Source: Ignavibacteriales bacterium
GTDB lineage: Bacteria > Bacillota > Sulfobacillia > JABLXB01
Direction: 5' to 3'
DNA: 64,000 nt
Assembly: GCA_050260105.1 (NCBI GenBank)
Contig: JBLNBR010000008.1
Span: 2,099 to 66,098, forward strand
This document shows positions 5,271-24,339 of the stretch, in pieces. A program made the position numbers and the translations under genes. Every line of letters begins with the position of its first letter. The first letter of the stretch is position 1. The notes below the pieces were generated by a model. That model did no database searches. It was not told where the DNA came from and saw only the letters and a list, made by a program, of their open reading frames with translations.

Positions 5271-5296
5271 TACACAATCCAGGTACACAATCCAGG
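5271..5296 (+). repeat. Tandem direct repeat 2 x 13 bp (TACACAATCCAGG) in the leader of the polysaccharide operon
   Basis: Exact tandem copies read directly, immediately after the terminator hairpin. A TTGCAC-N17-TATCTT promoter-like element follows at about 5343-5371. Confidence 0.6.
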
Positions 5297-5592
5297 TCTC
5301 CGGAGGACATTATGTTGCCCGTCATCATCCTCCCTCGTAGAGTGGCGATTTACCCGAAAACCCCCTGACCTATTGCACGATTTTGGGTAACGTGTTATCT
5401 TATAGGAGGTCACTTTCCAGTAAACAACATCCACCTCAAGACATAGGGATATCCGGGAGACCGCGTCATAGCGCTAGCCGTTCCATGCGTAGCGCTTGTG
5501 GTGTTTGGGGTTCTCCCGATTTGACGTGTTCTGGATCGCGTGGCAAGTCATCGGGGGGCGCGGGTCAACAGTTGTCATCGAATTTGCGGGTC

Positions 5593-7341
5593 ATGATGAC
5601 AACAGAAGGGACATATCCATTTCACCTTGGCGGAGTAAGCACGTGGTGCGATGCCCTGACGAAGGGCGTTCCGGCCGTGGATTTCATTCTCTATGCCATC
5701 CTCATGAACCCGTTCGTGACTCAGAAGTTCAGGACGTCCCCCAACGTGAAGGAACTGATAAAGGTACCCCTGTGGGGAACCGAGGAGCCCAGCGAGCACC
5801 TGACGCACATCCCGTTCTCTTCGGTCTATCTTGCCAAGCGCCGTACCGGCGAGGCAGTCATCAGGTCCGACTTCGTCCCGCTATTCGAAGGGCTGGTGCG
5901 GCAGCTGACGGCGGACGAAGGGCGGAGCGTTCCGGCGGTGGCCAGGACCCTATTCGAGATGTACAAGTATTTCAGACAGTACGACTACCAGACAACCTTC
6001 AAGTCACCCAGCGTGTGGGAGACTTTCAAGAGAGTCACACTCGAGGAAGTGGGCAGACTCGGTCGCAGGGACACGATCCCTACCCTGTTCGACCTGACGG
6101 AGAGCCTTGGATGGCTTTACAGGTTCTTCACCATCTTGAACACGCCGCTGCCAAAGGTGCATGTGACCCATTCAGCAGCCGCGGCGTTCTGCGGGATACC
6201 CTGTGTGATTTCGAAGCTCGAGAACAAGACGCCATACCTCCTGAGCGAGCACGGGATCTACCTGAGGGAGCAGTACATAGGCACGGCGCGGATGAGGCTG
6301 TCGATGTACTCGAGGAGATTCCTGCTCAACCTTGTGACGACGGTTGCACAGCTCAGCTATGAGTTTGCGGACCAGGTATCGCCTGTGTGCCAGTTCAATA
6401 CCCGCTGGGAACGCCGGATGGGAGTGCCGGAAGGCAGAATCAGAGTAGTCTACAACGGCGTCGATCCCGGGATCTACGCGCCAGCGCCGGATAAAGCCCA
6501 GGTGAGGCGCCCGCCGACGGTGGTGTGCGTTGCCCGAATAGACCCGATCAAGGACATGGAGACGCTCATTCGAACGGCGGCCCTGGTAAGACAGGCTGTG
6601 CCGGGTGTCAAGTTCGTCGTGTACGGCGCTCCCAGCTCGCAGTCGTATTTCGAGCGCTGCTACAAGTTAAGGTCGGAACTGGCCCTGGACGAGGTCTTCA
6701 TATTCGCGGGCCACACGAACGATGTGGCCGCCGCGTTCCGCACGGCGGACGTGGTCGCCCTGTCGAGCATATCGGAGGGCTTTCCGTACAGCGTAGTCGA
6801 GGCGATGATGTCGGGGAAGCCCATCGTGGCGACCGACGTCGGAGGGGTTCGTGAAGCGGTTGAGGGCTGCGGGTTTGTCGTGCCACCCCGGTCGCCGGAC
6901 AAGATGGCCACAGCCCTGGTGAAGTTGCTCGACGACGAACAGTTGAGGGCGGCGCTCGGGAAGCGGGCCAGGGAGAAGTCGCTGGAGTCGTTCACCATCG
7001 CCCGGCTGGTCAGCGAGTACCTGGATTCGTACGTCAGACTCCACGAGGGCGCGCTGCGTCGCTCGGCTGCCGCCAGCCGGAACAGGCAGGCGCTGTTCAC
7101 CGAGCGCGGCCTGGCGTTCATGGAGGCGGAGATGTGGCTCGAGGCTGTTGAACAGTTCAGGAGGGCCGTGGACGCCAATCCGTCGAGCCCTGCGGTTCCC
7201 GTCATACTCACGGAGATTGCTCAAGCATACAACAGTATGGGTCGCGTAGACCTTGCTCTCGTGGAGCTTCAGAAGGCGGAAATCCACGCGGAGATGGTGC
7301 TCGGGTTAACGTCCCCACTTGAACGGGCGGCAAACGGGTAG
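5593..7341 (+). CDS. PelF-like family 4 glycosyltransferase (DUF3492-type N-terminus) with C-terminal TPR-like tail
   Basis: N-terminus MMTTEGTYPFHLGGVSTW resembles the EGTYPYV.GGVSSW DUF3492 signature of PelF-type GT4s. The GT4 C-domain motif is EGFPYSVVEAMMSGKPIVATDVGG. TPR-like helices are at the C-terminus. The ORF-track start at 5383 is probably leader; TTG 5584 is an alternative start. Confidence 0.8.
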   Translation: MMTTEGTYPFHLGGVSTWCDALTKGVPAVDFILYAILMNPFVTQKFRTSPNVKELIKVPLWGTEEPSEHLTHIPFSSVYLAKRRTGEAVIRSDFVPLFEGLVRQLTADEGRSVPAVARTLFEMYKYFRQYDYQTTFKSPSVWETFKRVTLEEVGRLGRRDTIPTLFDLTESLGWLYRFFTILNTPLPKVHVTHSAAAAFCGIPCVISKLENKTPYLLSEHGIYLREQYIGTARMRLSMYSRRFLLNLVTTVAQLSYEFADQVSPVCQFNTRWERRMGVPEGRIRVVYNGVDPGIYAPAPDKAQVRRPPTVVCVARIDPIKDMETLIRTAALVRQAVPGVKFVVYGAPSSQSYFERCYKLRSELALDEVFIFAGHTNDVAAAFRTADVVALSSISEGFPYSVVEAMMSGKPIVATDVGGVREAVEGCGFVVPPRSPDKMATALVKLLDDEQLRAALGKRAREKSLESFTIARLVSEYLDSYVRLHEGALRRSAAASRNRQALFTERGLAFMEAEMWLEAVEQFRRAVDANPSSPAVPVILTEIAQAYNSMGRVDLALVELQKAEIHAEMVLGLTSPLERAANG

Positions 7342-7361
7342 CGACAAAGGTGGATTGAGCG

Positions 7362-7853
7362 ATGGGCAAGAAGTTCCCCAGGTCTCTGTGGGGTTACAGG
7401 CCTTCCGCCGTCGACGAGCATCTCGGATCCATTGCCCGGGACGCCGAGGAGAAGGCCAGGCAGCTGCGTGAGGAAACCGAACGGGCCCTTGAAGCCAACC
7501 GGGGTCTCAAGGAACAGGTGGAAATCGTTCAGAAGGAGATAGAGGGCTACAAAGAAAAGGAGCGCGCGGTTGCGCAGGCCATAATAGCTGCTCAACTCCG
7601 GGCGAGCAGTATCGAGGAAGAGGCCAGGAAAGTGGTGGAGGAACAGAAGCAGCGCGTGATCGCCGAGATCGCCGCGAAGCGGGTTGAGATGAACAGGGTG
7701 CGTGCTGAATTGGAGCGGTTCCGCCAGGCGTTTTCGCAGATGCTGGCCGCGATCGACGAGTCTCTGAAATCGGCGCCGCCTGTGGATATCGGCGATGTCG
7801 AGGTCTCTCTGGAGAAGGATTCAGTGGCTGACCGGACGGGAGGGTTTTCGTGA
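7362..7853 (+). CDS. DivIVA-domain coiled-coil protein
   Basis: The N-terminus FPRSLWGYRPSAVDEHL fits the DivIVA N-terminal domain pattern (F…GY…VD..L), followed by a long charged coiled coil. Confidence 0.65.
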   Translation: MGKKFPRSLWGYRPSAVDEHLGSIARDAEEKARQLREETERALEANRGLKEQVEIVQKEIEGYKEKERAVAQAIIAAQLRASSIEEEARKVVEEQKQRVIAEIAAKRVEMNRVRAELERFRQAFSQMLAAIDESLKSAPPVDIGDVEVSLEKDSVADRTGGFS

Positions 7854-9055
7854 AGTCCGCTCTTCCGAGACGGATCCTTGGATACAGAATAGGTGTTGTG
7901 GACGCTCACATCGAGATGGCCGAGCGCGAGTCCGCGGCCCTTGTGTCGCGCGCCCGTGATGACCTTCGTTTTGCCCTCGACGAGCAGGCCGCGTTGACCG
8001 AGCGTTTGTCTGAAAGGCGCAATGAGCTCTCATTGTACGCCGGTCGGAGCCGGTTCTACGAGAAGGCTATGCAGAAGGCCCTCGCCACCGCCGACTACCT
8101 TGTGGAGACTGCGAAGTACAGGGCCGAAACCATGGTGGCGGAGGGCGAGGAGTACGCCGGGGAGCAAAGGCTGCGCCTCATAGAACTCGACAGGGAGATA
8201 GCGGGCGCCCGCCGGGAGATCGAGATGATGCGGCAGGGCGTTAAGCAACTGATGGAGTCCCGTTCCGCCGTAATGCAACACGCGCGATCCTCCAAAGTTG
8301 CCGGCCACATACTGGAAGCGTCCGGCAGAAACGCGCCTTTCACGGCCACCACGTCGAGCGGCTTCCTGGAAGTGGACGTGAGCATTCAGGCGGTCAGGGT
8401 TGTGTCCCAGGACGGAGAGGAGATAGGACGCGTCCGGAGCCTGGTTCTGGACAAAACGAAGGACAGGGTATGCGGCTATGAAATTGAGCCGCAAGGCCCC
8501 GAGTCTCCCCTGAAGTCTCCGGCGATAGTCCCGTCGAGCGCTGTGATCGCGGTGAAGCGCGACGCACTCCTCGTGCACAGCAGCTGGGTGAGAGAACTCA
8601 GGCGTGTTCCCGCCCCCGCCGAGATGGAATCGCAGGTGCCTTCCTCAGAGACGCGGTCGAACCCCGTGGAGCCGAGGATCGGGGTCGATCTGCTCGAAAG
8701 GATTCGCGCAACCGTTCCGTCCGTGTCGCCTGCCGCAGTGCCTGCAATCGCCGGCCTTGCCGGTGGAACCAGTTCACCGGCCGCATCAACCCAGGTTGTG
8801 GCGGCTGAACCGGCCCCGGCGCCCGAAAGCGAGGCGGTGTCTCAGATCGGCTCACGGCGCATGAAGTATCTGGTCGGCAGGATCTCCGGCACCGATATTC
8901 GTGATCCGGACGGCGCACTGATCGTGGCCAAAGGCGGCACCATCACGGCCGAGATCGTGGACCGGGCAAGGTCCGCGGGCAAACTCGCGGAGCTGATCGT
9001 GAACATGACAATCCCGGGCCTCAACCCCGATGGAGAGTCTACCAGCGACTCATAG
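7850..9055 (+). CDS. DivIVA-domain protein with extended C-terminal region (two beta-rich repeats plus a Pro/Ala/Ser linker)
   Basis: N-terminus RRILGYRIGVVDAHI is DivIVA-like, then coiled coil. The C-terminus has two related segments: VRVVSQDGEEIGRVRSLVLDK and YLVGRISGTDIRDPDGALIVAKGGTIT. Overlaps upstream gene by 4 nt. Confidence 0.6.
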   Translation: MKSALPRRILGYRIGVVDAHIEMAERESAALVSRARDDLRFALDEQAALTERLSERRNELSLYAGRSRFYEKAMQKALATADYLVETAKYRAETMVAEGEEYAGEQRLRLIELDREIAGARREIEMMRQGVKQLMESRSAVMQHARSSKVAGHILEASGRNAPFTATTSSGFLEVDVSIQAVRVVSQDGEEIGRVRSLVLDKTKDRVCGYEIEPQGPESPLKSPAIVPSSAVIAVKRDALLVHSSWVRELRRVPAPAEMESQVPSSETRSNPVEPRIGVDLLERIRATVPSVSPAAVPAIAGLAGGTSSPAASTQVVAAEPAPAPESEAVSQIGSRRMKYLVGRISGTDIRDPDGALIVAKGGTITAEIVDRARSAGKLAELIVNMTIPGLNPDGESTSDS

Positions 9056-9079: not shown

Positions 9080-10654
9080 ATGACCGGGGAACACACAGAT
9101 CTGAGCGCGCTGGCGCGTGAGGTGGCGGAGAGGACCAGGTTCCCGCGTGACTGCTACGAGGTGGCTGCCGTTCTCGAGTCGATGGCCTGGACAGACGCCC
9201 TCGCACTCGAACGCTTCGGATTCGAGGATGTGTTCGAGCTCGCCAGCGCAGTCTTCGGGATGATCCCCAGGATAACCGCGGAATCCGCCGCCCGCCCCGA
9301 TAGAACCCCGGTATGGTTGGTACTACTGGTCATGGTCAAGCAATTCCTCCGTGGGATCATGTTCGCGATGCCGATGGCGATTTCTATCATCGCCATGCTC
9401 ACGATAAGGTATTCGCTCTGGTCCTACCAGTACTTCTCCGTCGAGAACGCCACGGCCATCGCGATCGGCACGGCGATGAGTTTCGTCGCCACGGGAGGCT
9501 TCACGCAGGCGATAGCCAGGCGGGGCCTGATGTACATTTCGCAGAATGAATACGGCCTCGCCAGGAGACTCTCATTCAATATCGTGCTGATTGGTGTTGT
9601 CGCCACGCTTGTTCTCGGGGCAGTCATGTTCCTGCTCAACCTGGCGTTCGCCGTTTTCCCCTGGAGCATGGCGTGGTTCACCTTCATATACTACCTGTTT
9701 CTATCGGCGATCTGGCTGTCAATCACGATCCTGTACATGCTCCGCAGGGAAGTCCTGTTCACCCTGGTGATGGCGGCCGGTATCGGGCTGGTGGTCCTCC
9801 TGCACGAATTCCTGCGCCTTACGATCATCGTCTCACAGATACTTGCTCTCTCGGTAACCGCTGGGGTATCGCTATCCCTGGCCACATACCTGTTCCTCTC
9901 CGCGGAGAGGCGAAGCGAATCGGGTCTCGAGGCAGCTCCGCTCCCGCGAGCCTCGCTTGTCGTGTATACCAGCGTTCCGTATTTCGTCTACGGCGTGCTG
10001 TACTTCTCGTTTCTGTATCTCGACAGGATCATAAGCTGGTCGACGAACGACGTGTACATGCCATACGTCATATGGTTTCGCGGACAATACGAACTGGGGC
10101 TGGACTGGGCGATTCTCGCCATCATCATCCCCATGGGCGCGGTGGAAATGATACTCGAGCAGTTTGTGGGGAGCCTCCTGAAGTCCGAGAAGGCTACCTC
10201 CGGCGCCGAATCGCGGCAATTCGGCCGGATGTACGTGAAGACATACACCAGGCAGATGGCGCTTTACCTCGCGCTGTCCGCGCTGAGTGGATACCTTCTG
10301 CATTCGGCCATCCTGCACGTGGAAAACCTGAGGATGTTCGAGGTGTACGTCTCGGGTGACCGCGTTTCATGGATTGTCTTCAACTGGTCGCTGATCGCCT
10401 ATGTGCTGTTGGCGGCCGGCCTGCTCAACTCGCTGATGCTATTCTGTCTTTCGAGGCCGGAGATGGCGGTGCGGGCGATTTCGTCGGCAGTACTGGTGGA
10501 TTTCGTCGTGGGCTTCGTTTGCAGCCGGCTCCTGGGTTACTACTGGGCAGTAGCCGGTCTCGTCGTCGGAGCCGCTGTCTTCGCGGTTACGGGTTCGAGG
10601 CAGGTTTTCAGGGTGTTGCGCAATCTCGATTATTACTATTACGCGTCACTCTAG
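9080..10654 (+). CDS. Polytopic integral membrane protein (about 12 TM segments) with ~60-aa cytoplasmic N-domain; possible polysaccharide polymerase or exporter component
   Basis: Hydrophobic periodicity throughout. Long uninterrupted ORF inside the operon. No family signature recognised. Confidence 0.55.
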   Translation: MTGEHTDLSALAREVAERTRFPRDCYEVAAVLESMAWTDALALERFGFEDVFELASAVFGMIPRITAESAARPDRTPVWLVLLVMVKQFLRGIMFAMPMAISIIAMLTIRYSLWSYQYFSVENATAIAIGTAMSFVATGGFTQAIARRGLMYISQNEYGLARRLSFNIVLIGVVATLVLGAVMFLLNLAFAVFPWSMAWFTFIYYLFLSAIWLSITILYMLRREVLFTLVMAAGIGLVVLLHEFLRLTIIVSQILALSVTAGVSLSLATYLFLSAERRSESGLEAAPLPRASLVVYTSVPYFVYGVLYFSFLYLDRIISWSTNDVYMPYVIWFRGQYELGLDWAILAIIIPMGAVEMILEQFVGSLLKSEKATSGAESRQFGRMYVKTYTRQMALYLALSALSGYLLHSAILHVENLRMFEVYVSGDRVSWIVFNWSLIAYVLLAAGLLNSLMLFCLSRPEMAVRAISSAVLVDFVVGFVCSRLLGYYWAVAGLVVGAAVFAVTGSRQVFRVLRNLDYYYYASL

Positions 10655-10709: not shown

Positions 10710-12698
10710 ATGGACTTGTACAACAGCGTGACAATCGCTACGGCGCTGTTCCGGATGGGCCTGTCATTCACCGGCCTGTTCATGGTATTGCCAGCGTTGT
10801 TGTTCAGGAAGGAGCCGGGGGCGCCGGCGCTGGACTCTTTCTACGCCAATTTCGTGAAGATGGTGTTCTTCATCCAGGTGACAACATATGCGCTTGCCGC
10901 TGTCCGCCTGTATGAAGTAATCTCGCTCGTCACGGTCTTCCTTGTGGCGGGCCTGTGGCGGGTAAGGTCATCAATGACCCCGGAACAGGTTCCCCGCGTT
11001 CGATCCATGCTCACGGTCCGCGGCCTGGACCTGGCGGACAGGAGGGTCGGCCTGTCCCACCTGGCCGCTCAGTGCAGGTTGACCATGGCGGCCCATGTCC
11101 GGGGTGTGTGTGTGGCGATGCGCGATAGGCTGAACCTCTTCGACTCGCTTGCGCTGTTCGCCACGCTCGGATACGCTGCCTACCTGCGGTTCCTCGACTC
11201 GATCGTCAACGCGGCCCCCGCCATGTCCGACTCTTATGTGACGCTGGCATGGATGAAATACATCGAGCGCCGCCAACTGTTTCACGATGGGATTTACCCG
11301 CACGGGTTTCACATATGGCTGTCGGTCCTGCACAAGTTCTCCGCCATCGACGCCCTGTTCGTGCTCAAATACGCCGGACCGTTCAACTCCGTGTTGACAA
11401 CGCTGTCATGCTACTACTTCGTATCGAGGATGACGGAAAACCCCCTGGCCGGCGTATGTTCGGCGTTCGCATACGGCTGCCTGCCCTCTTTCATGCCCTA
11501 CGAGTTCCAGCGTCAGGCGGCCACCAACTCACAGGAGTTCGCGATGCTGTTCCTGCTGCCGGCCGTTGTGTTCGTCGTGAGGTACCTGAGGCAGGGATCG
11601 CCCCGGGATCTCGCGGCCGCCTTCTGCGCGATCGGCGTCACGGGGTTGACTCACCCCGTGGTGACGCTGTTCGCGGTTGCTGGAGCGTTTGCCGCCGTCT
11701 GCGCAAGCGTGTTTTCGCTTTCGACCGGTTTTCGCAGGCTCGTGCGGATGGCCGGCGCCGGCATCGGGGCGGGGGGCGTGGCGTGCGTCCCGCTGGCCGC
11801 CGGACTGGCGGCGGGCATACCCTTTCACGGTTCATCGGCCGAATTCGCAGTCGCTGAAGGGGTGGCCTCTATACCCGTTGTCCAGCGCCTGCACGCCGCA
11901 GCACTTGTTGCCGGTCTGGCGGGGTGCCTGCTGTGCGCCGTGCTGGCGAGATCACGTCAGTCGCGCGCTGGTTTTCTCTGTTGCGGCTTTCTTGTCTTGG
12001 GATCGGTGTTGGTTTACATGGCGCCCGCTTTCGGGGTCCAGAACCTTGCGCTCTCCGCACGGTCCGGCGAGGTGTATGCCCTGGGGTTGTGCGTGGCTCT
12101 CGGCGCAGTGATTTCCGCGGCGGTACCGCGGGGATCCCTCGGAAGGCGCTGGTTTGTGGTTGCCTGGGGGTGGCTCACTCGAGCGGGGGTCGCAGGGCTC
12201 GCTGCGGCGGTGTTGATGCTGTTCCCCCAGTCGCCCGCCCGTCCATACAAGATGCAGACGAACGAAAGTGCGGAACAGTACATTCGCATCCTGCTCACGG
12301 ACACCCCGACCGATTGGCTCATCGTTTCCGACTTCGAGGGCTATTCTTTGGTGCTGGGGCGGGGCTGGCACTTGATGACTGGGGATTTCGTGCGGCAGGT
12401 GGACCCGTCGGGTGAGAAGCTGGAGATCGTGCAGAACGGGGTGTCGTCGCCCCTCGAGATGTCGAGGATCTACCTGTTCTACGAGGAGAACCCGTACAAG
12501 CCTCCCATCGAGGAGGCCATTCCTGAATACGAACGCAAGGTGGTGGACCAGCGCCGCCTCGCGGAATGGATAGCGAAATACGAGGCTCATCACGGGCCGC
12601 TGAAGGTGTATCACAGGGGGCCGGCTCTGACGATCTATGTCATAGAGCGTTCACCGGATAAGCGTAAGGAATTCGAGAGGATATGGGGCGATGCGTAA
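10710..12698 (+). CDS. Large polytopic membrane protein, GT-C-like/YfhO-like putative glycosyltransferase or polymerase (paralog 1)
   Basis: Multi-TM N-terminal two-thirds plus a soluble C-domain. Shares blocks with the next gene (DSYVTLAWMKYIERRQLFHDGIYPHGFH; RQAATNSQEFAMLFLLP; LGRGWH). Confidence 0.6.
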   Translation: MDLYNSVTIATALFRMGLSFTGLFMVLPALLFRKEPGAPALDSFYANFVKMVFFIQVTTYALAAVRLYEVISLVTVFLVAGLWRVRSSMTPEQVPRVRSMLTVRGLDLADRRVGLSHLAAQCRLTMAAHVRGVCVAMRDRLNLFDSLALFATLGYAAYLRFLDSIVNAAPAMSDSYVTLAWMKYIERRQLFHDGIYPHGFHIWLSVLHKFSAIDALFVLKYAGPFNSVLTTLSCYYFVSRMTENPLAGVCSAFAYGCLPSFMPYEFQRQAATNSQEFAMLFLLPAVVFVVRYLRQGSPRDLAAAFCAIGVTGLTHPVVTLFAVAGAFAAVCASVFSLSTGFRRLVRMAGAGIGAGGVACVPLAAGLAAGIPFHGSSAEFAVAEGVASIPVVQRLHAAALVAGLAGCLLCAVLARSRQSRAGFLCCGFLVLGSVLVYMAPAFGVQNLALSARSGEVYALGLCVALGAVISAAVPRGSLGRRWFVVAWGWLTRAGVAGLAAAVLMLFPQSPARPYKMQTNESAEQYIRILLTDTPTDWLIVSDFEGYSLVLGRGWHLMTGDFVRQVDPSGEKLEIVQNGVSSPLEMSRIYLFYEENPYKPPIEEAIPEYERKVVDQRRLAEWIAKYEAHHGPLKVYHRGPALTIYVIERSPDKRKEFERIWGDA

Positions 12699-15739: not shown

Positions 15740-16924
15740 ATGGTGAAGCGCGGTGATTGGGCCGGGTCGGTGTTTCTTACCGACGCCCAACAACGCAAGA
15801 CCCTGGCGGCAATTCGATCCCTCGCGCGCAGGCGAATCGCGCCACACGCCGGAGAAGTGACTGTCCTTGCGACATCGCTTTTCTCGCGTTACTGTGGTGG
15901 ACGCCTGGTGTATCCATCGCCGATCCTGCACCCCTCGGAGTGGGTGGACACCGTAGAGAAGTACGTGAGAACACACGCGATAGAATGCCTGTTCCCAATG
16001 GACGATGATAGCGTGCTGTTGGCTTCGGCCCGCAGGAAGGCATTCCAATCCCTGTGCGCCCTGCCGTTGCCCCCACACGAGATACTCGTTGAGGGTATGG
16101 ACAAGGCGAAGACAGTTGCCGCTGCGCAAGGCGCGGGGCTGAGATGTCCGGTTAGTATGCCGATTGCTGCCGCATGCCAGGCCAAGGAATGGTGCGGAGG
16201 GTATCCAGCCCTGGTCAGGCCGCGAAGGAGCTCTGGCGCCAGGGGACTCCGGGTTGTCCGAGGACCGCAGGATCTGGCCAATACAGTTGCAGCGCTGGCA
16301 AAGGAATACCCGGATGGACTTCTCATCCAGGAATACCTGGCTCAAGGGCCGAAGTTCGACGTGTGCGTTATGTTGGACTGGTCGGGCAAGCCGCTCGCTT
16401 CATTCGTGCAGAGGGAGATCAGATGTTTTCCTATTCCTCACGGTCCCAGCACTGTTCAAGAGAGCGTGCACAGGCCGGATCTCGTTGACCTCGCGCTTAA
16501 GCTGCTAAAACGCATGGGTTGGACGGGCCTTGCCGAAGTGGAATTCATGGAGGACCCAAGGGACGGAATGCCGGTGTTCATGGAGGTCAACCCGAGATTC
16601 TGGGCCTCTCTTCACCTGGCGGTGGAATGTGGAGTGGACTTTCCGTATCTCTTGTATCTGCTGGCCACAGGCAGGGATGTTCCGAACCGGCACGAATACC
16701 CTGCTGGGTTGAAATGCCGGTGGCTGCTGCCCGGAGACGTACTACACTTCATTTCGAACCCTCAAAGGCTGAGGATGGAGCCGGGCTTCTTCGAATTCTT
16801 CCGCAGGGACGTTATGGATGACATCATGTCCCTGTCTGATCCGGGGCCCACACTGGGATTCATATTGGCTGCGGCAAGATATGCGTTCGATCCTGTGATG
16901 TGGCGGTTCATGTTCCGGCGGTGA
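15740..16924 (+). CDS. ATP-grasp family ligase
   Basis: PALVRPRRSSGARGLRVV (glycine-rich ATP-grasp loop) and AEVEFMED…MEVNPRF (E[IV]NPR motif). Confidence 0.65.
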   Translation: MVKRGDWAGSVFLTDAQQRKTLAAIRSLARRRIAPHAGEVTVLATSLFSRYCGGRLVYPSPILHPSEWVDTVEKYVRTHAIECLFPMDDDSVLLASARRKAFQSLCALPLPPHEILVEGMDKAKTVAAAQGAGLRCPVSMPIAAACQAKEWCGGYPALVRPRRSSGARGLRVVRGPQDLANTVAALAKEYPDGLLIQEYLAQGPKFDVCVMLDWSGKPLASFVQREIRCFPIPHGPSTVQESVHRPDLVDLALKLLKRMGWTGLAEVEFMEDPRDGMPVFMEVNPRFWASLHLAVECGVDFPYLLYLLATGRDVPNRHEYPAGLKCRWLLPGDVLHFISNPQRLRMEPGFFEFFRRDVMDDIMSLSDPGPTLGFILAAARYAFDPVMWRFMFRR

Positions 16925-17835
16925 CGACCGTCGGTGGGCCATGGCGCCGGGCGGGCAGTCCCGGGCGTTATTCTGGAGGCGCTGTCTCATTGCTCAACGC
17001 ACTCACGTTCGACATCGAAGAATGGTATCACGGCAACCTGTTCCGTTTCGCGGAACCGCAGATGGCGCGGTTCCCGAGTCGTGTTGCGCCTCCGACAATG
17101 GACATACTCGACATGCTGAGGGCATCTGGTACCAGGGCCACCTTCTTCTTCCTTGGGGTCGTGGCCAGGGATCATCCCGAGCTCGTGAGGCGCGCAGCCT
17201 CTGAAGGCCACGAAGTCGCCTGCCACGGCTGGGAGCACCGTCTCCTGTACACCCTTTCCGATGATGAAGTCAAGCAGGACCTTCTCAGGGCCAAGGGCCT
17301 CCTGGAAGACATCTCCGGCACTCGTGTAAGGGGGTTCAGGGCGCCTTCCTGGTCGATATCGCGCCGCACTACACACCTGTTGAGAGTGCTGTGCGAATGC
17401 GGGTTCGAGTACGATTCCAGCGCTTTCCCAAGAGGGACGCCGCTTTTCGGCGTTGACGGGGTTTCACCGGGGCCCACGCGGATTTCGGTTGGAGATGGTC
17501 CCGGACGGTGGAGCATTATTGAGTCTCCAGCTGCCGCCTACGACACCGGCATCGGGCTAGGGATACCGTTTGGTGGGGGATTGTTCTTGCGCATATGGCC
17601 GTACCTCCTCACCCGGTCCTGGATTCGTCGCCTCAATGGCAGGGGAGAGCCGGCCGTCATCTATGTTCACCCGTGGGAGTTGGATATGGGCCTCCCCGTC
17701 TGTAGTCCGGTGTGGCGCCGCATGGCCAGGGACTTCAACCTGCGTTCGACAAGGCCCAAGTTGGAGGCTATTCTGAGGGATTTCTCCCTGGGGACAGTTC
17801 TTGAGATGCTTCGAGAGAGAGGCCTGTATGAATAG
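16900..17835 (+). CDS. Polysaccharide deacetylase (CE4), resembling the PEP-CTERM-locus/DUF3473 subfamily
   Basis: LTFDIEEWYHG (TFDVEDWF-type motif) and HGWEHR. Overlaps upstream gene. Confidence 0.7.
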   Translation: MAVHVPAVTTVGGPWRRAGSPGRYSGGAVSLLNALTFDIEEWYHGNLFRFAEPQMARFPSRVAPPTMDILDMLRASGTRATFFFLGVVARDHPELVRRAASEGHEVACHGWEHRLLYTLSDDEVKQDLLRAKGLLEDISGTRVRGFRAPSWSISRRTTHLLRVLCECGFEYDSSAFPRGTPLFGVDGVSPGPTRISVGDGPGRWSIIESPAAAYDTGIGLGIPFGGGLFLRIWPYLLTRSWIRRLNGRGEPAVIYVHPWELDMGLPVCSPVWRRMARDFNLRSTRPKLEAILRDFSLGTVLEMLRERGLYE

Positions 17836-19396
17836 CACGCGGCGGTTGTCACCGGCTCTCATCGTTGCCGGGGCGAACATCATCCTCGCCGTGGTCGCGT
17901 TCGTCAGGGAGGCTGTCCTGGGGGCGACGATCGGGACAGAGTACTCGGCAGACGCATTCGCCCTATCCCTTTACCTGGCGGACGCGCAGGCGAATACCAT
18001 CTTCTACAGCTCGATCGTGTTCGCGGCCATCCCGGTTCTGTCAGGACATGTTGTCGATCGTCGCAGAGACAGTCTGTTGCGCACTCTTAACTCGGCTACC
18101 GGGACGGGCGTGGCCGTCAGCGCCGCTCTGTGGACAGTGAACGCATCAGCCGCCAGGCTGCTTATCAGCACCCTGGGGGCCGGCTTTCCCGCTCCAGAGA
18201 GGAGCCTGGCAACCAGCATGTTCCTCCTATTGCTCCCCCTGATTCCCTGCTACATACTTTCCGCTGTATTCATTTCGGGTTTGCAGGCATGCTCCGAGTT
18301 CGGGGTGCCCGCTTTCGGCCCCGTTGTTCTCAACGTCTTGTTCATTGCCGGCCTGGGGGCAACGATGAGCCACCTCGGGCCGGCTGGCCTGTCGGTTTCC
18401 TACAGCGTTGGCGCCGTCGCAATGCTCTTGCTCCAGGCCGTGACGCTACATGTGAAAGGGCTTCCCATCAGACCATCATTTGACATTTGCGACCCGGGAC
18501 TGAGGCAAATGGTAACCGCCCTTGTCCCGATTGCCCTTGTACAGGTCTTCAACCAGCCAACCTATCTTGTAGAGCGCATACTTGCGGGGAGGTTCGGCGA
18601 GGGTGGCGTCGCCAGCCTGACATATGCTTTCAAGGTGTCGCAGATCCCTGTCTGGGTATTCGTGGCTGCTCTGGGCGCTGTGGCGTTTCCCGCTATGTCA
18701 CGTTTCGCCCACCTCAACGACGTGGATGGAATGTCTGGCGTACTGGAAAAGGCCGCTGAACTGACCATGGCCATCACACTCCCATCGGCTGTTGTGTTCC
18801 GGGTCTTCGCCCGAGAGGTGACTGCGGCGATATTCATGAGGGGTGCATTCGGGGCGGCGTCGCTCGCTTCGACGTCCCAGGTGCTCCGGGGTTATGCGCT
18901 GGCGCCCGTATGTCACGGGTTGCTATACCTGTTGCTCAGACTGTGCTACGCCTGCCGCGACACAGCGACACCCATCATAGCAACTCTGGCCGGTTCCGCG
19001 GTTACGGTGCTAGCGGATCTCATCTTGACACCCAGTCTGGGTCTTGAGGCGCTGGGCTTCGGATCCGCCATCGGGTTGACGGTATCCGCAGCATTCATCA
19101 CCTGGAGGGTCCGTACGAGGCTGGCACGTGAGGCGCCGCGGCGCCTCGCCTTGGCCGCCGGCAGTATTCTTGTATGCTGCATCATCATGTTGATGGTGAT
19201 GTTCGCAGTCGAAGGGTGTCTGCCGGTGCACGTTGAAGCAATCACTGAGGAACAGAGGTTGTTCCGGACGGGGGCATTGTTCTCCGCAGGATTCGCGTCG
19301 TATGCGACGGCATACCTCTTTCTCGGCTCGGGAGCGTTACGATTTCGCGGAGTTGTGGCATCGAATCGCGCAGATCATGGCGCCCCCAGGGAGTGA
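17828..19396 (+). CDS. MOP-superfamily flippase, MurJ/MviN-like (PelG-like role possible)
   Basis: N-terminus ALIVAGANIILAVVAFVREAVLGATIGTEYSADAFALSLYL…IPVL matches the MurJ N-terminal pattern. About 14 TM segments, about 520 aa. Confidence 0.7.
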   Translation: MNSTRRLSPALIVAGANIILAVVAFVREAVLGATIGTEYSADAFALSLYLADAQANTIFYSSIVFAAIPVLSGHVVDRRRDSLLRTLNSATGTGVAVSAALWTVNASAARLLISTLGAGFPAPERSLATSMFLLLLPLIPCYILSAVFISGLQACSEFGVPAFGPVVLNVLFIAGLGATMSHLGPAGLSVSYSVGAVAMLLLQAVTLHVKGLPIRPSFDICDPGLRQMVTALVPIALVQVFNQPTYLVERILAGRFGEGGVASLTYAFKVSQIPVWVFVAALGAVAFPAMSRFAHLNDVDGMSGVLEKAAELTMAITLPSAVVFRVFAREVTAAIFMRGAFGAASLASTSQVLRGYALAPVCHGLLYLLLRLCYACRDTATPIIATLAGSAVTVLADLILTPSLGLEALGFGSAIGLTVSAAFITWRVRTRLAREAPRRLALAAGSILVCCIIMLMVMFAVEGCLPVHVEAITEEQRLFRTGALFSAGFASYATAYLFLGSGALRFRGVVASNRADHGAPRE

Positions 19397-21258
19397 TCTC
19401 GGTGATCATCCATCTGGCTGGAGCGGTCGCTGCAACTCTGATAACAGTGCTGCTCGTGCGTGACCTGCGATTGAGGTCTCTCAACAGGCGCCTCCTGGAG
19501 AGAGAGTCACTGTGGCGCCGGATACTGTCGGCGGTTGGGCCGGGTCTCACCTTTGACGAATCGGCTGGCAACTTGCTCGCACTGATTTCATCCCTCGTGG
19601 ACGCTCCGGGCTACTACCTATACATGAGCGGAACTGAGTCGAACGCGCTTTCGCTCAGAGTGATCAGAAGTGAACCCGAAACGATGAGGGCTGGGATATA
19701 CTACTCCAGCCTGGTGGAGGAGTATCCGGCATACGATGCCCCGCTCAGTCAAGATCCCCGGAACCAGCCCGGCGAGGTGGGATTCGTGGGCGCCGGAGAC
19801 CTTGCCCTGCTGGCTATTCCCATCAGGCGGGACGGTTCCACTATCGCCGCAATACATGTGGGCCCGGTCCGGCCCCACGACATACCTGCCGCCCGTTTGA
19901 ACCTCCTCAAGGACCTGCACCCTGCGCTGACTCTCGCCGTCACCACGATATGGGAGAATGACATCATCAGGCGGAAATCCGATGATCTCGCCGGCCAACT
20001 GGAGGCCGTATCGATAGCCGCAAGGGGGGCCTATGAACCGTCGGGGTTCGTCGAGACCATGATGTCACTCGGCGCCCGGCTCACCGGCAGCGACTCATGG
20101 CTGCTGGCTGTCTTCGATGAATACTGCCCCAGCCGTTTCAAACCGGTCTTCAGGGGAATCTCCGAGACTACTGCGCGCGAAGTCATCAGCCACCTGTCTT
20201 CGGCGCGTGCAACGGGCCTTTTCCCACGGCAGATCGAATTCATCCACGATGCCGGCGCACTCAGAGACTCCCTGGGGACGCTCCTGCGATGCGGTCGTTC
20301 TCAAGGGGTGATTTGGGCCCCCCTGGTGCACGACGACAGAGTAGCCGGCGCACTTATCCTCTTTGTCGATGCTAGACGGCCTCCTGACATCCACAAGATT
20401 CAGGCCCTCGGCGCACTTACGACTTGGCTGGTGGGCGCACTCGACAGCCTTCGTACCCAAGAGCAGGTGACGCGCGCCTATGTGGAAAGCCTCAAGACGC
20501 TGGCCACGTTCATAGATGAACAGGAAATCTACAGCAGGGGTCATTCGGCGAGAGTAGCCAAGCTGGCTCGCGAGATCGCGGGGGAACTGGATCTCGCTCC
20601 CCGGTACCTGGAGGCAGTGGAGCTGGCCGGCTACCTGCATGATATCGGGATGTGCGCGCTCAAAGGCGAACTCGTTTTTGGAGCGGCGAAGTTCACTGAC
20701 GTGGAGTACGAGGAGATGAAGGCGCACACCACCATTGGGGCTGCGCTCGTGGGGCCGGTCAACGACTTCGCCCCGCTGGCCTCCCTAATCAAGCACCACC
20801 ATGAGAGATATGATGGCGGCGGATACCCCGATGGACTGAAGGGCGAGATGATTCCCATTGGGGCAAGGATCGTCGCGGTGGCGGATGTATTCAATGCCAA
20901 GATTACGAACCGGAGCTACAGGCGGGCGCTCAGTTTCGGGAAGGCGGTTGAGGACATGGTGAAGACGGAGGGAACGATGCTTGACCCGAAGTGTGTCAAG
21001 GCGCTTCTGTCCTCGATCCGGCGGAAGCAGAACAGAGCCGAACGGCGGGGCAAGACCCTCGAGCCCTGTTGGGAGATGCTACAGTGTCCTCAGTACCTTC
21101 GTGACGCCTGTCCAGCGGGGCCCAGGGACTGCCACTGTTGGACAGTGCCGGGTGTGCGCTGTGACCTGCACGGTAGCCGTTGCGAGAGCTGTCCTGTCTA
21201 TACCGAGTACGAATTGAGGACAGGCGCTGCGCCGGGTGGTGTGGTCAATGGCCGCTAG
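19393..21258 (+). CDS. Membrane-anchored GAF-like sensor plus HD-GYP c-di-GMP phosphodiesterase with C-terminal 9-Cys tail
   Basis: HD-GYP motifs YLHDIGM and HHERYDGGGYPDGL. N-terminal TM segment. C-terminus CWEMLQCPQYLRDACPAGPRDCHCWTVPGVRCDLHGSRCESCPVY. Confidence 0.8.
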   Translation: MISVIIHLAGAVAATLITVLLVRDLRLRSLNRRLLERESLWRRILSAVGPGLTFDESAGNLLALISSLVDAPGYYLYMSGTESNALSLRVIRSEPETMRAGIYYSSLVEEYPAYDAPLSQDPRNQPGEVGFVGAGDLALLAIPIRRDGSTIAAIHVGPVRPHDIPAARLNLLKDLHPALTLAVTTIWENDIIRRKSDDLAGQLEAVSIAARGAYEPSGFVETMMSLGARLTGSDSWLLAVFDEYCPSRFKPVFRGISETTAREVISHLSSARATGLFPRQIEFIHDAGALRDSLGTLLRCGRSQGVIWAPLVHDDRVAGALILFVDARRPPDIHKIQALGALTTWLVGALDSLRTQEQVTRAYVESLKTLATFIDEQEIYSRGHSARVAKLAREIAGELDLAPRYLEAVELAGYLHDIGMCALKGELVFGAAKFTDVEYEEMKAHTTIGAALVGPVNDFAPLASLIKHHHERYDGGGYPDGLKGEMIPIGARIVAVADVFNAKITNRSYRRALSFGKAVEDMVKTEGTMLDPKCVKALLSSIRRKQNRAERRGKTLEPCWEMLQCPQYLRDACPAGPRDCHCWTVPGVRCDLHGSRCESCPVYTEYELRTGAAPGGVVNGR

Positions 21259-22057
21259 AGACGCGCCGGCCCGCGCCCGCTTCAGGGCTGCTCACAACTA
21301 CGTGGTCTACTATGGCGATGGGCGCCTCGATGACTTGGCTCAATTCGACGTTGCGATTCTCGAAAGCTCGGCCTATGCGGCAGGCGAAGTCGAGGACCTC
21401 TCGCAGCGCGGGTGCCTGCCGATCAGCTATCTCAGCGTTCTGGAATCCAGCGATCATCTGCCGTATCACCAGTTCGCCGCTTGCCGCGATTTCCTCACGC
21501 TGTCTGGTTCGAGGGTCCTGATACCCGAGTTTGACACTTGGGTAATGGATATTCGCGAGCCGCACTGGCGCGAGGTTCTTCTGACCGCTGCTGGCGACAT
21601 GTTGGAGAGGAAGCGCTTCTCCGGCTTGTTCCTTGACACTGTTAGCAGGGTGGAAGACCCGTCGTTTCCGGCGTCGCTTTCCCTGGACCTGGCCGCCGGC
21701 GTCCTCGAATTTGTCAGCACACTTCGAAGGAACTATCCCGGCGCCGTCCTCATCCAGAACCTTGGGCTTGAAAGGCTCGTTCGTCACACGGCCCCGTTGC
21801 TTGACGGCGTGTGCTGGGAAGGGTTCGGGAGTCTTCCCTGCCATGACTCCCGCGAGTGGCGCTGGATGCTCAATAAGATACGGGAGTTGAAGCAGCTACG
21901 TGAACAATACGGCATCAGGATCATGCTGTTGGGTCATGCTGCTTTGGGAAGGGAAGTAGAGGCAATCTTGAGTCGGAGCGGCCCCGATGAACTAATGTCC
22001 TGCTGGGGATTGTCCTATTCCAGGGCGGTTCAACAGGAGATGAACGACAGGGGATGA
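21236..22057 (+). CDS. GH114-like (COG2342/PelA-hydrolase-like) putative endo-alpha-1,4-polygalactosaminidase-type glycoside hydrolase
   Basis: TIM-barrel-like alternation. Blocks FDVAILE, ISYLSVLES (YxS[IV]GE-like) and GLFLDTV. Family assignment is from memory of GH114 motifs, at moderate certainty. Confidence 0.45.
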   Translation: MVWSMAARDAPARARFRAAHNYVVYYGDGRLDDLAQFDVAILESSAYAAGEVEDLSQRGCLPISYLSVLESSDHLPYHQFAACRDFLTLSGSRVLIPEFDTWVMDIREPHWREVLLTAAGDMLERKRFSGLFLDTVSRVEDPSFPASLSLDLAAGVLEFVSTLRRNYPGAVLIQNLGLERLVRHTAPLLDGVCWEGFGSLPCHDSREWRWMLNKIRELKQLREQYGIRIMLLGHAALGREVEAILSRSGPDELMSCWGLSYSRAVQQEMNDRG

Positions 22058-23139
22058 GGATCGCCTATCTTGTTCTCGACGATCTTAGCCGAATGCCCGG
22101 CGTCTGGAAGAAGGTGGTTGGCCAAGTTGAGCAATGGCGCCTTCTCGGGCACGACCCTGCCGTCTTCGCGTGCGAACCAAGGAGGGCGACTCACTCTGAC
22201 TTGATCCACGACTCTCGGGCTGCAGCCTACCCCGACTACGCTGCGGCCTACATCCTACGCAGTCTGACAGCACTGAGAGTCCGGCGTGAATTGAGCGATT
22301 TCCGGCCCGACATCGTCTACATGCGATTCGGGGTGTTCACTCCATTTGTCAGCGGCACTCTGGAAGTGGCTCGCGCCCCAGTCATCATCGAGGTTAACAG
22401 CGATGATGTTGCTGAGTATGATCGGTACGGACCGATGATAGGCGGGTACAATCGGCTTACCCGGGGACTGCTACTGTCAAGGGCTGCGGGGTTCGTCAGC
22501 GTCACCGACGAACTGCGTGCTCGCTTGGGCCGTCCGGCGGTACTTCACGTGGTCGTTCCCAACGGAGTCGCATGGAGAGAGTTCGCACGGCTACCCGCGC
22601 CAGGGAACGATAGGCCAAACATCGTCTTCGTGGGGTCTTCCGATCAACCGTGGCAGGGTGTGGACAAGATAACATATCTTGCCAAGCGATGTCCCGAGTT
22701 CACGTTCCATGTTGTCGGTCCTAAGAACGTGGAGGTCCTACCGAATGTCGTTGTACACGGTTGGAAACTAGGTAAGGACCTTCAGCAGATATACGCGGTG
22801 AGTGATGCTGCGATTGGAACACTCGCTCTCCACAGGAAGGGCATGAATGAAGCGAGTCCCCTCAAGGTCCGAGAGTATTTGGCATACGGAATTCCCAGCA
22901 TTATTGGCTACCACGATCCTGATCTCGAAGGTCATATTCCGGGAATACTCAAGCTACCTAACCACGAGCACAATGTCGCGAATGCCGTATCGGAAATACG
23001 ACAATTCATCGTGGCACACGTTGGCAAGAGAGTTGGTGACGGAGTCAAGCTACTGATCGATTCTGGTAGGAAAGAGGCAAAAAGGGTGGGTTTCTTCCAA
23101 ATGGTCCTTGATCAGCATAGACGGCAAGCGCCACTATGA
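22054..23139 (+). CDS. Glycosyltransferase (GT4-like, GT-B fold)
   Basis: C-domain KVREYLAYGIPSIIGY (E-x7-E-like region). 361 aa. Last gene of the co-directional run. Confidence 0.55.
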   Translation: MRIAYLVLDDLSRMPGVWKKVVGQVEQWRLLGHDPAVFACEPRRATHSDLIHDSRAAAYPDYAAAYILRSLTALRVRRELSDFRPDIVYMRFGVFTPFVSGTLEVARAPVIIEVNSDDVAEYDRYGPMIGGYNRLTRGLLLSRAAGFVSVTDELRARLGRPAVLHVVVPNGVAWREFARLPAPGNDRPNIVFVGSSDQPWQGVDKITYLAKRCPEFTFHVVGPKNVEVLPNVVVHGWKLGKDLQQIYAVSDAAIGTLALHRKGMNEASPLKVREYLAYGIPSIIGYHDPDLEGHIPGILKLPNHEHNVANAVSEIRQFIVAHVGKRVGDGVKLLIDSGRKEAKRVGFFQMVLDQHRRQAPL

Positions 23140-24339
23140 CCTCCGCACGGGTGCTGTCCTCTTATACAGCGATACAAGCGACTCTGCTGCTGCCCTGCTG
23201 GATCGCTCGGATTGAATGTACCGCAGGCCCGACTCAGTCAGGTGCGACATGAGTCCAGAGTCATCCCGCAGACGCAGCAGAGATGATGCTAGCGACACGG
23301 GATCGCGCTCAGGCACCAGGATTCCTGTGTCTTCGTGGTGAATGATCTCGCGCAACCCGCCGACCGCGGACGCTATCACCGGTTTCCCGCAGGCCATGGC
23401 CTCGAGTACAGCCATAGAGCACCCCTCGACTGCTCCGCTGGGAGAAGAGACTGAGGGTATCACCACAACGTCTGCGGCGCCATAGAGTGCAGGCATACGG
23501 TCGTTCGGAATCTGTCCAAGCAAGGAGAGACATCCGCTAACGCCCAGATCTGCAGCTAAGCGAGTCAGATCCCCCGCCTGCTCGCCAATTCCCAGCACGA
23601 GGACGTGTGGCTTCCTTCCCTCCGACCCGACGAGGGCCGGCAACGCCCTGATAAGGAATTCCGCCCCGTACTTGGGGAGCAGCCGCCTCGGGCAGAGTAT
23701 GACGAAGTCGTCGTCATCGAGGCCCAACCGCTGCCGCTCGACCTTCCTATTCCCGGCTCGCTCTGTGAACCGTTCCACATCGACGAAATTGGGCATCAAG
23801 ACGACCTTGTCGGGTTGGGCTCCGTGTTTGACAACGTGTTCGGACAGCCTAGATGTCACGGTAATAACCACGCCGGCTCTCGTATAAGCCTTCTCCTCCT
23901 GGTTCAATAGGAAACCGTGTGCCGGGCTGTTGGTGGGAACCCTGCGATCCTCCACGGCCTCTGCGGCGAGGTAGCCGTGCACTGTCATGACAACGGGAAT
24001 GCCTCGTGCCCGATCGAGTCCCCATGCCGCATTGGCAGCGGAAACGTCTTGAGCATGAATGGCGTCAAAACGGCTACGAGTGAGGGCCTTGAACATCTGC
24101 GCTCTCAGCAGATACTGGCTGAAGACATAGGCGGTGACCATTCCGCAGGGGAAACGTAGGAAGACGGCCAGCGCAGTCGACATTCTAGGACCGATCGCCT
24201 TGAACTCGTCCGCCACACCCAGGGGCGTGACGACGACGGCCTCGTGGCCGGCGGCCCGCAGGGCGCGGCACAGCGAATTGATGTGTGATGAGACCCCACC
24301 GACTGTCGGCGTTACGCCGGCGGCAATCAGAATGCGCAC
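23134..24339 (-). CDS. Family 4 glycosyltransferase (convergent to the operon)
   Basis: AVLEAMACGKPVIASAVGGLREII is the GT4 signature. N-terminus MRILIAAGVTPTVGGVSSHI. Confidence 0.8.
   Translation of the reverse strand: MRILIAAGVTPTVGGVSSHINSLCRALRAAGHEAVVVTPLGVADEFKAIGPRMSTALAVFLRFPCGMVTAYVFSQYLLRAQMFKALTRSRFDAIHAQDVSAANAAWGLDRARGIPVVMTVHGYLAAEAVEDRRVPTNSPAHGFLLNQEEKAYTRAGVVITVTSRLSEHVVKHGAQPDKVVLMPNFVDVERFTERAGNRKVERQRLGLDDDDFVILCPRRLLPKYGAEFLIRALPALVGSEGRKPHVLVLGIGEQAGDLTRLAADLGVSGCLSLLGQIPNDRMPALYGAADVVVIPSVSSPSGAVEGCSMAVLEAMACGKPVIASAVGGLREIIHHEDTGILVPERDPVSLASSLLRLRDDSGLMSHLTESGLRYIQSERSSRAAAESLVSLYKRTAPVRRS

Follow-up and report, generated by a model that had tools for sequence, protein, structure and literature searches.

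A conserved, partly Pel-like envelope-polysaccharide operon with different helper proteins in Bacillota

Pel is among the few exopolysaccharide systems that occur on both sides of the Gram divide, and little is understood of its membrane complex. The described Pel product is a cationic polymer, rich in N-acetylgalactosamine and partially de-N-acetylated. PelD is a c-di-GMP-binding membrane protein containing a GAF and a degenerate GGDEF domain, PelE is small, membrane-bound and has TPR-like helices, and PelG is a 12-TM MOP-type protein encoded next to PelF. Signalling by cyclic dimeric GMP (c-di-GMP) in Firmicutes is little known as well. Here, we analyzed a stretch of 64,000 nucleotides (the whole of which is called the window, 64 kb) from contig JBLNBR010000008.1 of the assembly GCA_050260105.1 (Ignavibacteriales bacterium; GTDB lineage Bacillota, Sulfobacillia). 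Positions 5593-23139 of the window hold a real operon of about 18 kb for an envelope polysaccharide, which is related to Pel and carries different helper proteins. The operon is widespread, conserved and uncharacterized.

Among Gram-positive bacteria, Pel is represented by the pelDEA(DA)FG operon of Bacillus cereus ATCC 10987, and GalE-like and DUF4832 proteins have been reported as accessory genes of Gram-positive pel loci (PMC7112168). For Roseburia, Whitfield et al. 2020 (PMC7112168, S7 Fig) reported pel genes within a larger cluster that is possibly related to capsule or teichoic acid. A further known system is GacI/GacJ/GacK/GacL of Streptococcus pyogenes, the experimentally shown precedent for the attachment of side-chain N-acetylglucosamine (GlcNAc): GacK flips the lipid-linked sugar, the GT-C enzyme GacL moves it to the wall polymer, and the DUF2304 family (GacJ/Rv3632) comprises activators of the HexNAc-phosphate-polyprenol synthases GacI/PpgS (HexNAc, N-acetylhexosamine; bioRxiv 10.1101/180810). 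Judged by its sequence features, the window operon is partly Pel-like but falls outside the described pelDEA(DA)FG family: it has PelF and a PelA-type hydrolase domain and lacks PelD, PelE and the DUF2194 deacetylase. The open reading frame (ORF) listing and translations gave 13 tightly packed co-directional genes (g1 to g13) and one convergent gene (g14), with the glycosyltransferases (GT) and other products listed below.

5199..5592, + strand: leader and promoter region, untranslated, 394 nt (sequence read)
g1, 5593..7341, + strand: PelF-type GT4 with DUF3492 N-terminus and C-terminal helical TPR-like tail (NCBIfam/Pfam)
g2, 7362..7853, + strand: small DivIVA-domain coiled-coil protein (Pfam DivIVA 41.7 bits, cut-off 28)
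g3, 7850..9055, + strand: DivIVA-like N-terminus, variable linker and conserved C-terminal domain of about 55 aa without known family (BLASTP/Pfam)
g4, 9080..10654, + strand: divergent PelG-like membrane protein of the MOP superfamily, extended at the N-terminus by about 65 conserved, cytoplasmic residues (Pfam, AF2, i.e. AlphaFold2, and Foldseek)
g5, 10710..12698, + strand: membrane protein of the GT-C fold, glycosyltransferase-like, with a soluble domain at the C-terminus (AF2/Foldseek)
g6, 12691..14856, + strand: paralog of g5 (30% identity, E 1e-53)
g7, 14905..15732, + strand: GT2 of the polyprenyl-phosphate-sugar synthase type, PpgS/ArnC/GacI-like (Pfam GT2 78.6 bits)
g8, 15740..16924, + strand: ATP-grasp ligase (Pfam ATPgrasp_Ter, CPSase_L_D2, ATP-grasp_3)
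g9, 16900..17835, + strand: CE4 deacetylase with DUF3473 and without signal peptide, likely start TTG 16990 (Pfam/TIGRFAM)
g10, 17801..19396, + strand: MurJ-family MOP flippase, likely start ATG 17828 (Pfam MurJ 202 bits)
g11, 19393..21258, + strand: N-terminal membrane anchor (one helix), two GAF-like domains, HD-GYP and Cys-rich tail (HD_5 115.8 bits)
g12, 21236..22057, + strand: PelA-hydrolase-like TIM-barrel glycoside hydrolase without signal peptide (phmmer/profile)
g13, 22054..23139, + strand: GT4-like glycosyltransferase, lineage-specific (Pfam Glyco_transf_4, Glyco_trans_4_4 and Glyco_trans_1_4, modest scores)
g14, 23134..24339, - strand: convergent GT4 glycosyltransferase (Glycos_transf_1 117 bits)

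Spacing between the genes, with overlaps as negative values, is +20 nt at g1/g2, -4 at g2/g3, +24 at g3/g4, +55 at g4/g5, -8 at g5/g6, +48 at g6/g7, +7 at g7/g8, -25 at g8/g9, -35 at g9/g10, -4 at g10/g11, -23 at g11/g12 and -4 at g12/g13; g14 overlaps g13 by 6 nt. The choice of start codon decides three of these overlaps. TTG 16990, which has a GGAGG upstream and agrees with the N-termini of g9 orthologs, is the likely true start of g9, and ATG 17828 that of g10; with these starts g8/g9 becomes +65 nt and g9/g10 becomes -8 nt. From g1 to g13, the junctions lie between 8 nt of overlap and 55 nt of spacing (65 nt with TTG 16990 as the start of g9), and five of them are overlaps of 4-8 nt. A scan of the cluster for internal terminators gave no signal above shuffled sequence, and a scan of the leader gave no promoter-like site above chance or shuffles. 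As no Rfam family exceeded noise in the 394-nt leader, it contains no c-di-GMP riboswitch.

The relatives of the operon were obtained by scanning one genome per species with an alignment of the g5 family, which yielded 176 confirmed stretches; 78 loci were retained from these. All component counts refer to the 42 Bacillota loci with enough flanking DNA and are lower bounds, since the clusters often exceed the 10-kb flank. The operon was found in at least 40 other Firmicutes species across Bacilli and Clostridia, with carriers in Paenibacillus, Alicyclobacillus, Tumebacillus, Psychrobacillus, Paenisporosarcina, Ectobacillus, Priestia abyssalis, Desulfosporosinus, Pelotomaculum, Peptococcaceae and many metagenome-assembled genomes (MAGs) of Clostridia. 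When the 14 window proteins were all mapped by homology onto the related loci, a recurring order emerged of PelF, small DivIVA-like ORF, g3, g4, g5, (g6), ATP-grasp, CE4, MurJ-like, GT2, DUF2304, HD-GYP and hydrolase, in which the GT2 on the one hand and the HD-GYP and hydrolase genes on the other change position between lineages. The GT-C gene g5 recurs with PelF, the DivIVA-like pair and the PelG-like gene in 40/42 loci; PelF, g3 and g4 were each counted in 40/42. Further components are the GT2 (34/42), the MurJ-like gene inside the operon (33/42), ATP-grasp and HD-GYP (32/42 each), the hydrolase (27/42), CE4 (26/42), DUF2304 (23/42) and the second GT-C gene g6 (20/42).

In the NCBI names, PelF alone is named, and the named homologs of g4 and g5 are all "hypothetical". 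A preliminary description of this DNA had proposed a single envelope-polysaccharide operon with Pel-like parts, built of 13 co-directional, closely linked genes and closed by a convergent GT4. The ORF listing, translation and junction analysis agree with this layout, and the operon is supported by dozens of Bacillota genomes that carry this set of genes in a mostly unchanged order. The same description considered the combination undescribed. A literature search for PelF with DivIVA or DUF3492 with HD-GYP found no description of such an operon, and the cluster is not unique to the window, since its PelF, DivIVA-like, PelG-like and GT-C genes recur in 40/42 loci. Several of the gene calls also held, namely the PelF-like GT4 with its DUF3492 N-terminus, the GT2, the ATP-grasp ligase, the CE4 deacetylase, the MOP flippase (of the MurJ family) and the two terminal GT4s by their model or Pfam matches, the HD-GYP domain by its HD_5 score, and the duplicated pair of GT-C-like membrane proteins of about 700 aa by the similarity of g5 and g6 and the fold of the g5 model.

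The Pel-like half of the operon starts with g1, which reached 146.1 bits on the NCBIfam PelF model NF038011 (cut-off 100) and 133 bits on Pfam DUF3492 (cut-off 23.3), and which is about 24% identical to canonical Firmicute PelF. Its C-terminal tail of about 105 aa is helical; the TPR tail of the preliminary description thus stands as a helical tail, and the TPR match itself stays below threshold (TPR_1, 18.9 bits), with Pfam TPR domains carried by g1 homologs. Directly after PelF, 37 loci encode an ORF of about 140 aa, most of which have a g2-like N-terminal motif and a coiled coil. A DivIVA domain combines an N-terminal lipid-binding motif with a coiled coil, and two proteins with such a domain had been expected here. 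This applies to g2, and g3 is a DivIVA-like paralog of it (BLASTP E 1e-7) that remains below the Pfam DivIVA threshold (19.6 bits, threshold 28). The most conserved part of g3 in the family is its C-terminal domain (window 8837-9052) with the motif YIVGK.AG.DL.D..G.LI..K...IT.E.V..A..EGKL.ELIVNM, for which no Pfam match was found; comparison of g3 with PDB sequences gave chance-level matches only. A PRC-barrel match in g3 (22.9 bits) falls in the non-conserved linker and was dropped as a family feature.

The next gene, g4, is likely the PelG counterpart of the operon. Its only Pfam match is PelG (PF16933), which covers the full length at 24.6 bits (threshold 29); 11/34 of its orthologs match PelG, with a best E-value of 4e-8 and no other relevant match. 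The AF2 model of g4 (predicted local distance difference test, pLDDT, 85.8) has a predicted MOP fold, as the top Foldseek matches are all MATE, MurJ or Wzx; a sequence search of the PDB with g4 gave nothing. The preliminary description had assigned the PelG-like role to the MurJ-like gene g10 and had not named g4. We move this role to g4 because of its sole, full-length Pfam match, the matches of its orthologs and the MOP fold.

The distal part of this half comprises g11 and g12. The window g11 has the complete HD-GYP metal ligands (H, HD, H, HH, D) and HHERYDGGGYP, as well as a GAF_2 match slightly under threshold (26.6 bits). Apart from the window, six loci, most of them clostridial, have intact ligands; in 29/38 orthologs the ligands (H, HD, D) are lost and replaced by Y/R, SN and Q, and both HHERxDGxGYP and the Cys-rich tail persist in these ligand-less sequences. 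Since most relatives lost the metal ligands, the role conserved in the family is probably sensing or receptor-like rather than c-di-GMP hydrolysis. The C-terminus of g11 (20950-21258) carries eight Cys and one His in CWEM.C.P..C..CPAY......NCWE.....C..HG..C..C.V.TE., and such a tail is present in all but 2 of 39 HD-GYP sequences (window and orthologs in L003-L067). Pfam found nothing above noise on the tail, with a chance-level match to DUF2769; it may be a metal- or redox-sensing module. Where the preliminary description had seen an HD-GYP protein in the place of PelD, the domain is present and PelD itself is absent; g11 is at most a functional analog.

The hydrolase g12 had been described as GH114-like. 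It is GH114/PelA-hydrolase-like, and the PelA hydrolase domain is the best match: phmmer gave E 1e-10 against PelA (PDB 5tcb), and the g12 family profile gave E 1.3e-21 against PelA and 5e-5 against GH114. D134, Q174, N175 and E195 are invariant in the family, and the acidic D134 and E195 lie in conserved motifs. No signal peptide or membrane anchor was found in g9 or g12, neither here nor in nearly all orthologs. The CE4 deacetylase and the hydrolase thus do not represent periplasmic PelA divided into two proteins, and the earlier suggestion that they together cover its two activities did not hold. In four Bacilli loci (L008, L025, L032, L034; Psychrobacillus, Paenisporosarcina and Priestia abyssalis) the HD-GYP gene is missing. 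Here, the hydrolase (around 16.5-19.9 kb in each locus) is fused to a membrane helix and a GAF-like domain homologous to g11 residues ~42-190, which suggests that g11 and g12 work together; following the positive-inside rule, both would lie on the cytoplasmic side.

The other half of the operon resembles systems that attach sugars from a lipid carrier. The AF2 model of g5 reached a pLDDT of 88, and its 23 top Foldseek PDB matches were all GT-C (probability 1.0, TM-score about 0.4), including STT3, AftA, DPY19, AglB, ALG12, PglB, ArnT and PMT. Weak Pfam matches of g5 are DUF6541 and PMT_2, SDSYVTLAW and FHDGIYP are invariant motifs of its family, and a PDB sequence search with g5 or the family profile found nothing. 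The GT2 g7 matches PpgS best in NCBIfam (E 9e-14; 51 bits, far under the equivalog cut-off of 370) and ArnC with E 3e-12, which is family-level similarity only. PpgS is the polyprenyl-phosphate-GalNAc synthase (GalNAc, N-acetylgalactosamine). Most relatives carry a PpgS-like GT2. In the relative L017 the GT2 scores 116 bits on PpgS and is followed by a Pfam-confirmed DUF2304 protein; overall, DUF2304 comes directly after the GT2 in 23-30 of the related loci, and jackhmmer linked all 26 small ORFs of this kind.

ATP-grasp lies directly upstream of CE4 in most related loci with both, and its PDB matches are generic; an apparent ATP-grasp/CE4 fusion in L007 was an ORF-calling artefact. The deacetylase g9 scored 80 bits on Polysacc_deac_1, 82 bits on DUF3473 and 222 bits on TIGR03006 (cut-off 276). 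The MurJ-family protein g10 reached 210 bits on TIGR01695, under the lipid II flippase equivalog cut-off of 235.6, and by analogy it appears to fit better as a GacK-like flippase of a lipid-linked sugar than as PelG. All four Gac roles (GacI/J/K/L) have candidates in this operon family, with DUF2304 in relatives and not in the window.

A link between this module and Pel is also seen in the locus L070 from an uncultured Roseburia MAG, a pelDEA(DA)FG locus in which a distant g5/g6 homolog, DUF2304, a PpgS-like GT2 and an extra GT4 are co-directional. The canonical pel order of Lachnospiraceae is PelD, PelE, DUF2194, PelF and PelG. As a distant g5 homolog, DUF2304 and GT2 occur in canonical pel loci, the GT-C module is tied to Pel-type systems in two independent architectures. 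The claim that no described pel locus has the additional parts was hence too strong.

Based on these observations, we propose with a probability of about 0.5 that a Pel-type synthase core is joined to a GacIJKL/Arn-like lipid-carrier module, which would decorate the polymer outside the cell. All steps of this mechanism are drawn from homology, fold and conserved gene order. In the synthase part, the cytoplasmic PelF-type GT4 (g1) would polymerize a hexosamine-type sugar, by analogy to Pel probably GalNAc or GlcNAc, and hand the polymer to the PelG-like MOP protein (g4). Where PelD/PelE would otherwise act, the enzyme is probably held at the membrane complex by the DivIVA-like proteins g2 and g3 together with its own TPR-like tail; the membrane-anchored GAF/HD-GYP protein g11 would be the regulatory element, partnered by g12 at the cytoplasmic face. 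In the decorating part, g7 would make polyprenyl-phosphate-HexNAc, de-N-acetylation and re-acylation of the lipid-linked sugar may be the task of the cytoplasmic CE4 (g9) and the ATP-grasp ligase (g8), g10 would flip this sugar over the membrane, and the GT-C proteins g5 and g6 would transfer it onto the polymer or the wall.

Several results weigh against this proposal. On the Pel side, no GGDEF/PelD domain was found in the 14 products by Pfam/NCBIfam, and tblastn of the 64-kb window with Firmicute PelD was empty; tblastn found no PelE homolog in the window either, the PelF tail being the only TPR-like element, and the DUF2194 deacetylase was found neither among the cluster genes (Pfam/NCBIfam) nor in the window (tblastn). 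The assignment of g4 is affected by its score below the Pfam PelG threshold (24.6 vs 29 bits, with canonical PelG at 498 bits on the same model), by the lack of BLAST similarity to canonical PelG, and by equally weak hhalign values against PelG (E 0.029) and a MurJ-like family (E 0.022). Binding of c-di-GMP by a degenerate HD-GYP is an assumption, and we know of no role for a cytoplasmic PelA-like hydrolase. On the side of the decorating module, the window GT2 belongs to a subtype that its nearest relatives also have and most others do not, and neither tblastn nor profile search detected DUF2304 in the window. STT3 is the top structural match of g5, and GT-C enzymes are also ligases or oligosaccharyltransferases. 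The substrates of CE4 and ATP-grasp are guesses from gene order, and the PDB matches of both proteins are generic.

The main alternative explanation is a lipid-carrier pathway of the Wzx/Wzy-like or oligosaccharyltransferase-like type. In this case, PelF, the GT2 and the extra GT4s would build an undecaprenyl-linked oligosaccharide with an amino-acid or acyl group, which would be flipped by the MurJ-like and/or PelG-like protein and polymerized by the GT-C proteins or ligated by them to a wall polymer, a surface-layer (S-layer) protein or another protein. The oligosaccharyltransferases STT3, AglB and PglB among the top structural matches of g5 speak for this pathway, as do the two MOP flippase-like proteins in the cluster (g4 and g10), four GTs in total, weak matches of the ATP-grasp protein to the D-Ala-D-Ala ligase type and the cytoplasmic CE4, whose location would be suited to a precursor substrate. 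That members of the MurJ family flip lipid-linked precursors counts in the same direction. However, none of the 14 products showed the domain of an initiating transferase (polyprenyl-phosphate phosphoglycosyl transferase), and the GT2 appears to be of the polyprenyl-monophosphate-sugar synthase type and is paired with DUF2304 in relatives, which suggests single-sugar decoration; the GT-C/DUF2304/GT2 module also lies inside canonical pel loci such as L070. In addition, the PelF family is known only from synthase-type Pel systems (PMC7112168). We therefore consider the pathway possible and on balance doubtful.

The passed PelF model, the PelA-hydrolase-like and PelG-like genes and the c-di-GMP-type domain could also point to a standard Gram-positive Pel operon that is orthologous to the pelDEA(DA)FG of B. 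cereus and has some extra neighbors. This is very unlikely given that PelD, PelE and DUF2194 are missing in both the cluster and the window, that PelF shares so little identity with its canonical counterpart, and that g4 has no BLAST similarity to canonical PelG. Moreover, the non-canonical genes are kept together with PelF in 26-40/42 loci and are therefore core parts rather than neighbors. Even less probable is a chance juxtaposition of at least two unrelated operons (Pel-like, wall-decoration and a signalling gene). The gaps of 48-65 nt at g4/g5, g6/g7 and g8/g9 could hold internal promoters, and the shifts in position of the GT2, and of the HD-GYP and hydrolase genes, between lineages would agree with such an origin, but the gene set stays together in Bacilli and Clostridia despite rearrangements, no terminator signal within the cluster exceeds shuffles, and overlaps of 4-8 nt occur at five junctions. 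Both of these explanations are thus contradicted by the Pel feature tests and synteny.

Returning to the decorated Pel-type polymer, a more far-reaching interpretation would be that Gram-positives possess a second, separate type of Pel-like machinery. Here, curvature-sensing scaffolds of the DivIVA-like type and a mostly degenerate HD-GYP/GAF protein with Cys-rich tail would replace PelD/PelE, the cytoplasmic PelA-like hydrolase would serve chain release or priming, and deposition of the polymer would be confined to particular sites, for instance poles or septa, with a modified amino sugar added via the lipid carrier. We regard this extension as tentative and, taken as a whole, unlikely.

The two GT4s at the end of the cluster are less closely tied to the family. 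No homolog of g13 was found in any related locus, and a g14-like GT4 lies inside the operon in only three relatives (L001, L018, L024); the membership of g14 in the polysaccharide system is uncertain. Around the related loci, GalE-like epimerases flank 22 and DUF4832 proteins flank 3; neither was found in the 64-kb window. In some relatives, a gene for an exosortase (EpsH-like) or a T2SSE-type ATPase lies directly upstream of PelF (L057:4042-5652 of Alicyclobacillus mengziensis, L007:3293-4927, L001:8739-9797); the gene in A. mengziensis is the exosortase-like type. Together with the XrtA-type CE4, these upstream genes hint at a link to exosortase-type systems.

Both flanks of the polysaccharide cluster in the window are unrelated metabolic genes. 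The upstream region 63-5198 is a formate module with a molybdopterin formate-dehydrogenase-like gene, a MobA-FdhD fusion, a FocA-type formate/nitrite transporter gene (- strand) and a YHS-domain protein, and a strong terminator hairpin at 5239-5270, within the 394-nt leader, belongs to the YHS gene. Downstream (24495-26330), two tandem paralogs of the DHDPS family (304 and 303 aa) are followed by a class-V aminotransferase. A single tRNA gene at 61125-61199 is the sole Rfam match above gathering score in the whole window. The G+C content is about 60%. A 100% identical partial protein is on record, labelled "Bacillota bacterium" MAG, and an exact-sequence lookup of the window PelF gave no record.

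The operon retains PelF, a PelG-like protein and a PelA-type hydrolase and swaps the regulatory and scaffold parts, and could thereby show which parts of the Pel machine are exchangeable. The degenerate HD-GYP is a candidate for a new type of c-di-GMP receptor in Firmicutes, and the linked GT-C module predicts side groups on Pel-type polymers that derive from a lipid carrier. As cultured carriers exist in strains of Paenibacillus, Tumebacillus, Psychrobacillus, Priestia and Alicyclobacillus, these predictions are directly testable.

Compared with known systems, the PEP-CTERM/XrtA loci share the CE4, which is closest to the XrtA deacetylase TIGR03006 (222 bits in the window and 245 bits in L017, cut-off 276), and GT4 genes that resemble the stp2 and stp3 families at scores below the equivalog cut-offs; no exosortase or PEP-CTERM proteins were seen in the window cluster, and the carriers here are Gram-positive. 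Analogous sets to the decorating module are GacIJKL, PpgS/Rv3632/Rv3779, CsbB/GtcA/YfhO and ArnC/D/EF/T. With GacIJKL, the operon family shares a GT2 that is a putative polyprenyl-phosphate-sugar synthase, DUF2304 (in relatives), a candidate MOP flippase and a GT-C protein in one locus, and the lipid-linked sugar could be the target of a CE4-type enzyme, a parallel to Arn. In contrast to these sets, the flippase here is of the MurJ family, an ATP-grasp ligase is added, DUF2304 is not in the window, the similarity is at family level only, and the acceptor would be a Pel-like polymer instead of rhamnan, arabinogalactan, teichoic acid or lipid A. The Roseburia-type locus L070 keeps PelD (with SDR N-terminus), PelE, the DUF2194 deacetylase and a canonical PelG, and lacks the DivIVA-like proteins, the HD-GYP, the ATP-grasp/CE4 pair and the MurJ-like gene.

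With B. cereus pelDEA(DA)FG (PMC7112168), the window operon shares a PelF-type GT4 with a MOP-type membrane protein after it, a gene for a PelA-like hydrolase and a membrane-anchored GAF protein with a c-di-GMP-type domain, and the GalE-like and DUF4832 accessory genes of Gram-positive Pel also flank relatives of the operon. The degenerate HD-GYP of the relatives parallels the enzyme-turned-receptor pattern of the degenerate GGDEF in PelD. In contrast to the B. cereus operon, PelD (GAF plus degenerate GGDEF), PelE and the extracellular DUF2194 deacetylase are missing here, the PelG-like protein is highly divergent, PelF has a TPR-like tail and the hydrolase lacks a signal peptide. To this, the window-type core adds the DivIVA-like pair, GT-C, ATP-grasp, a cytoplasmic CE4 and the MurJ-like flippase.

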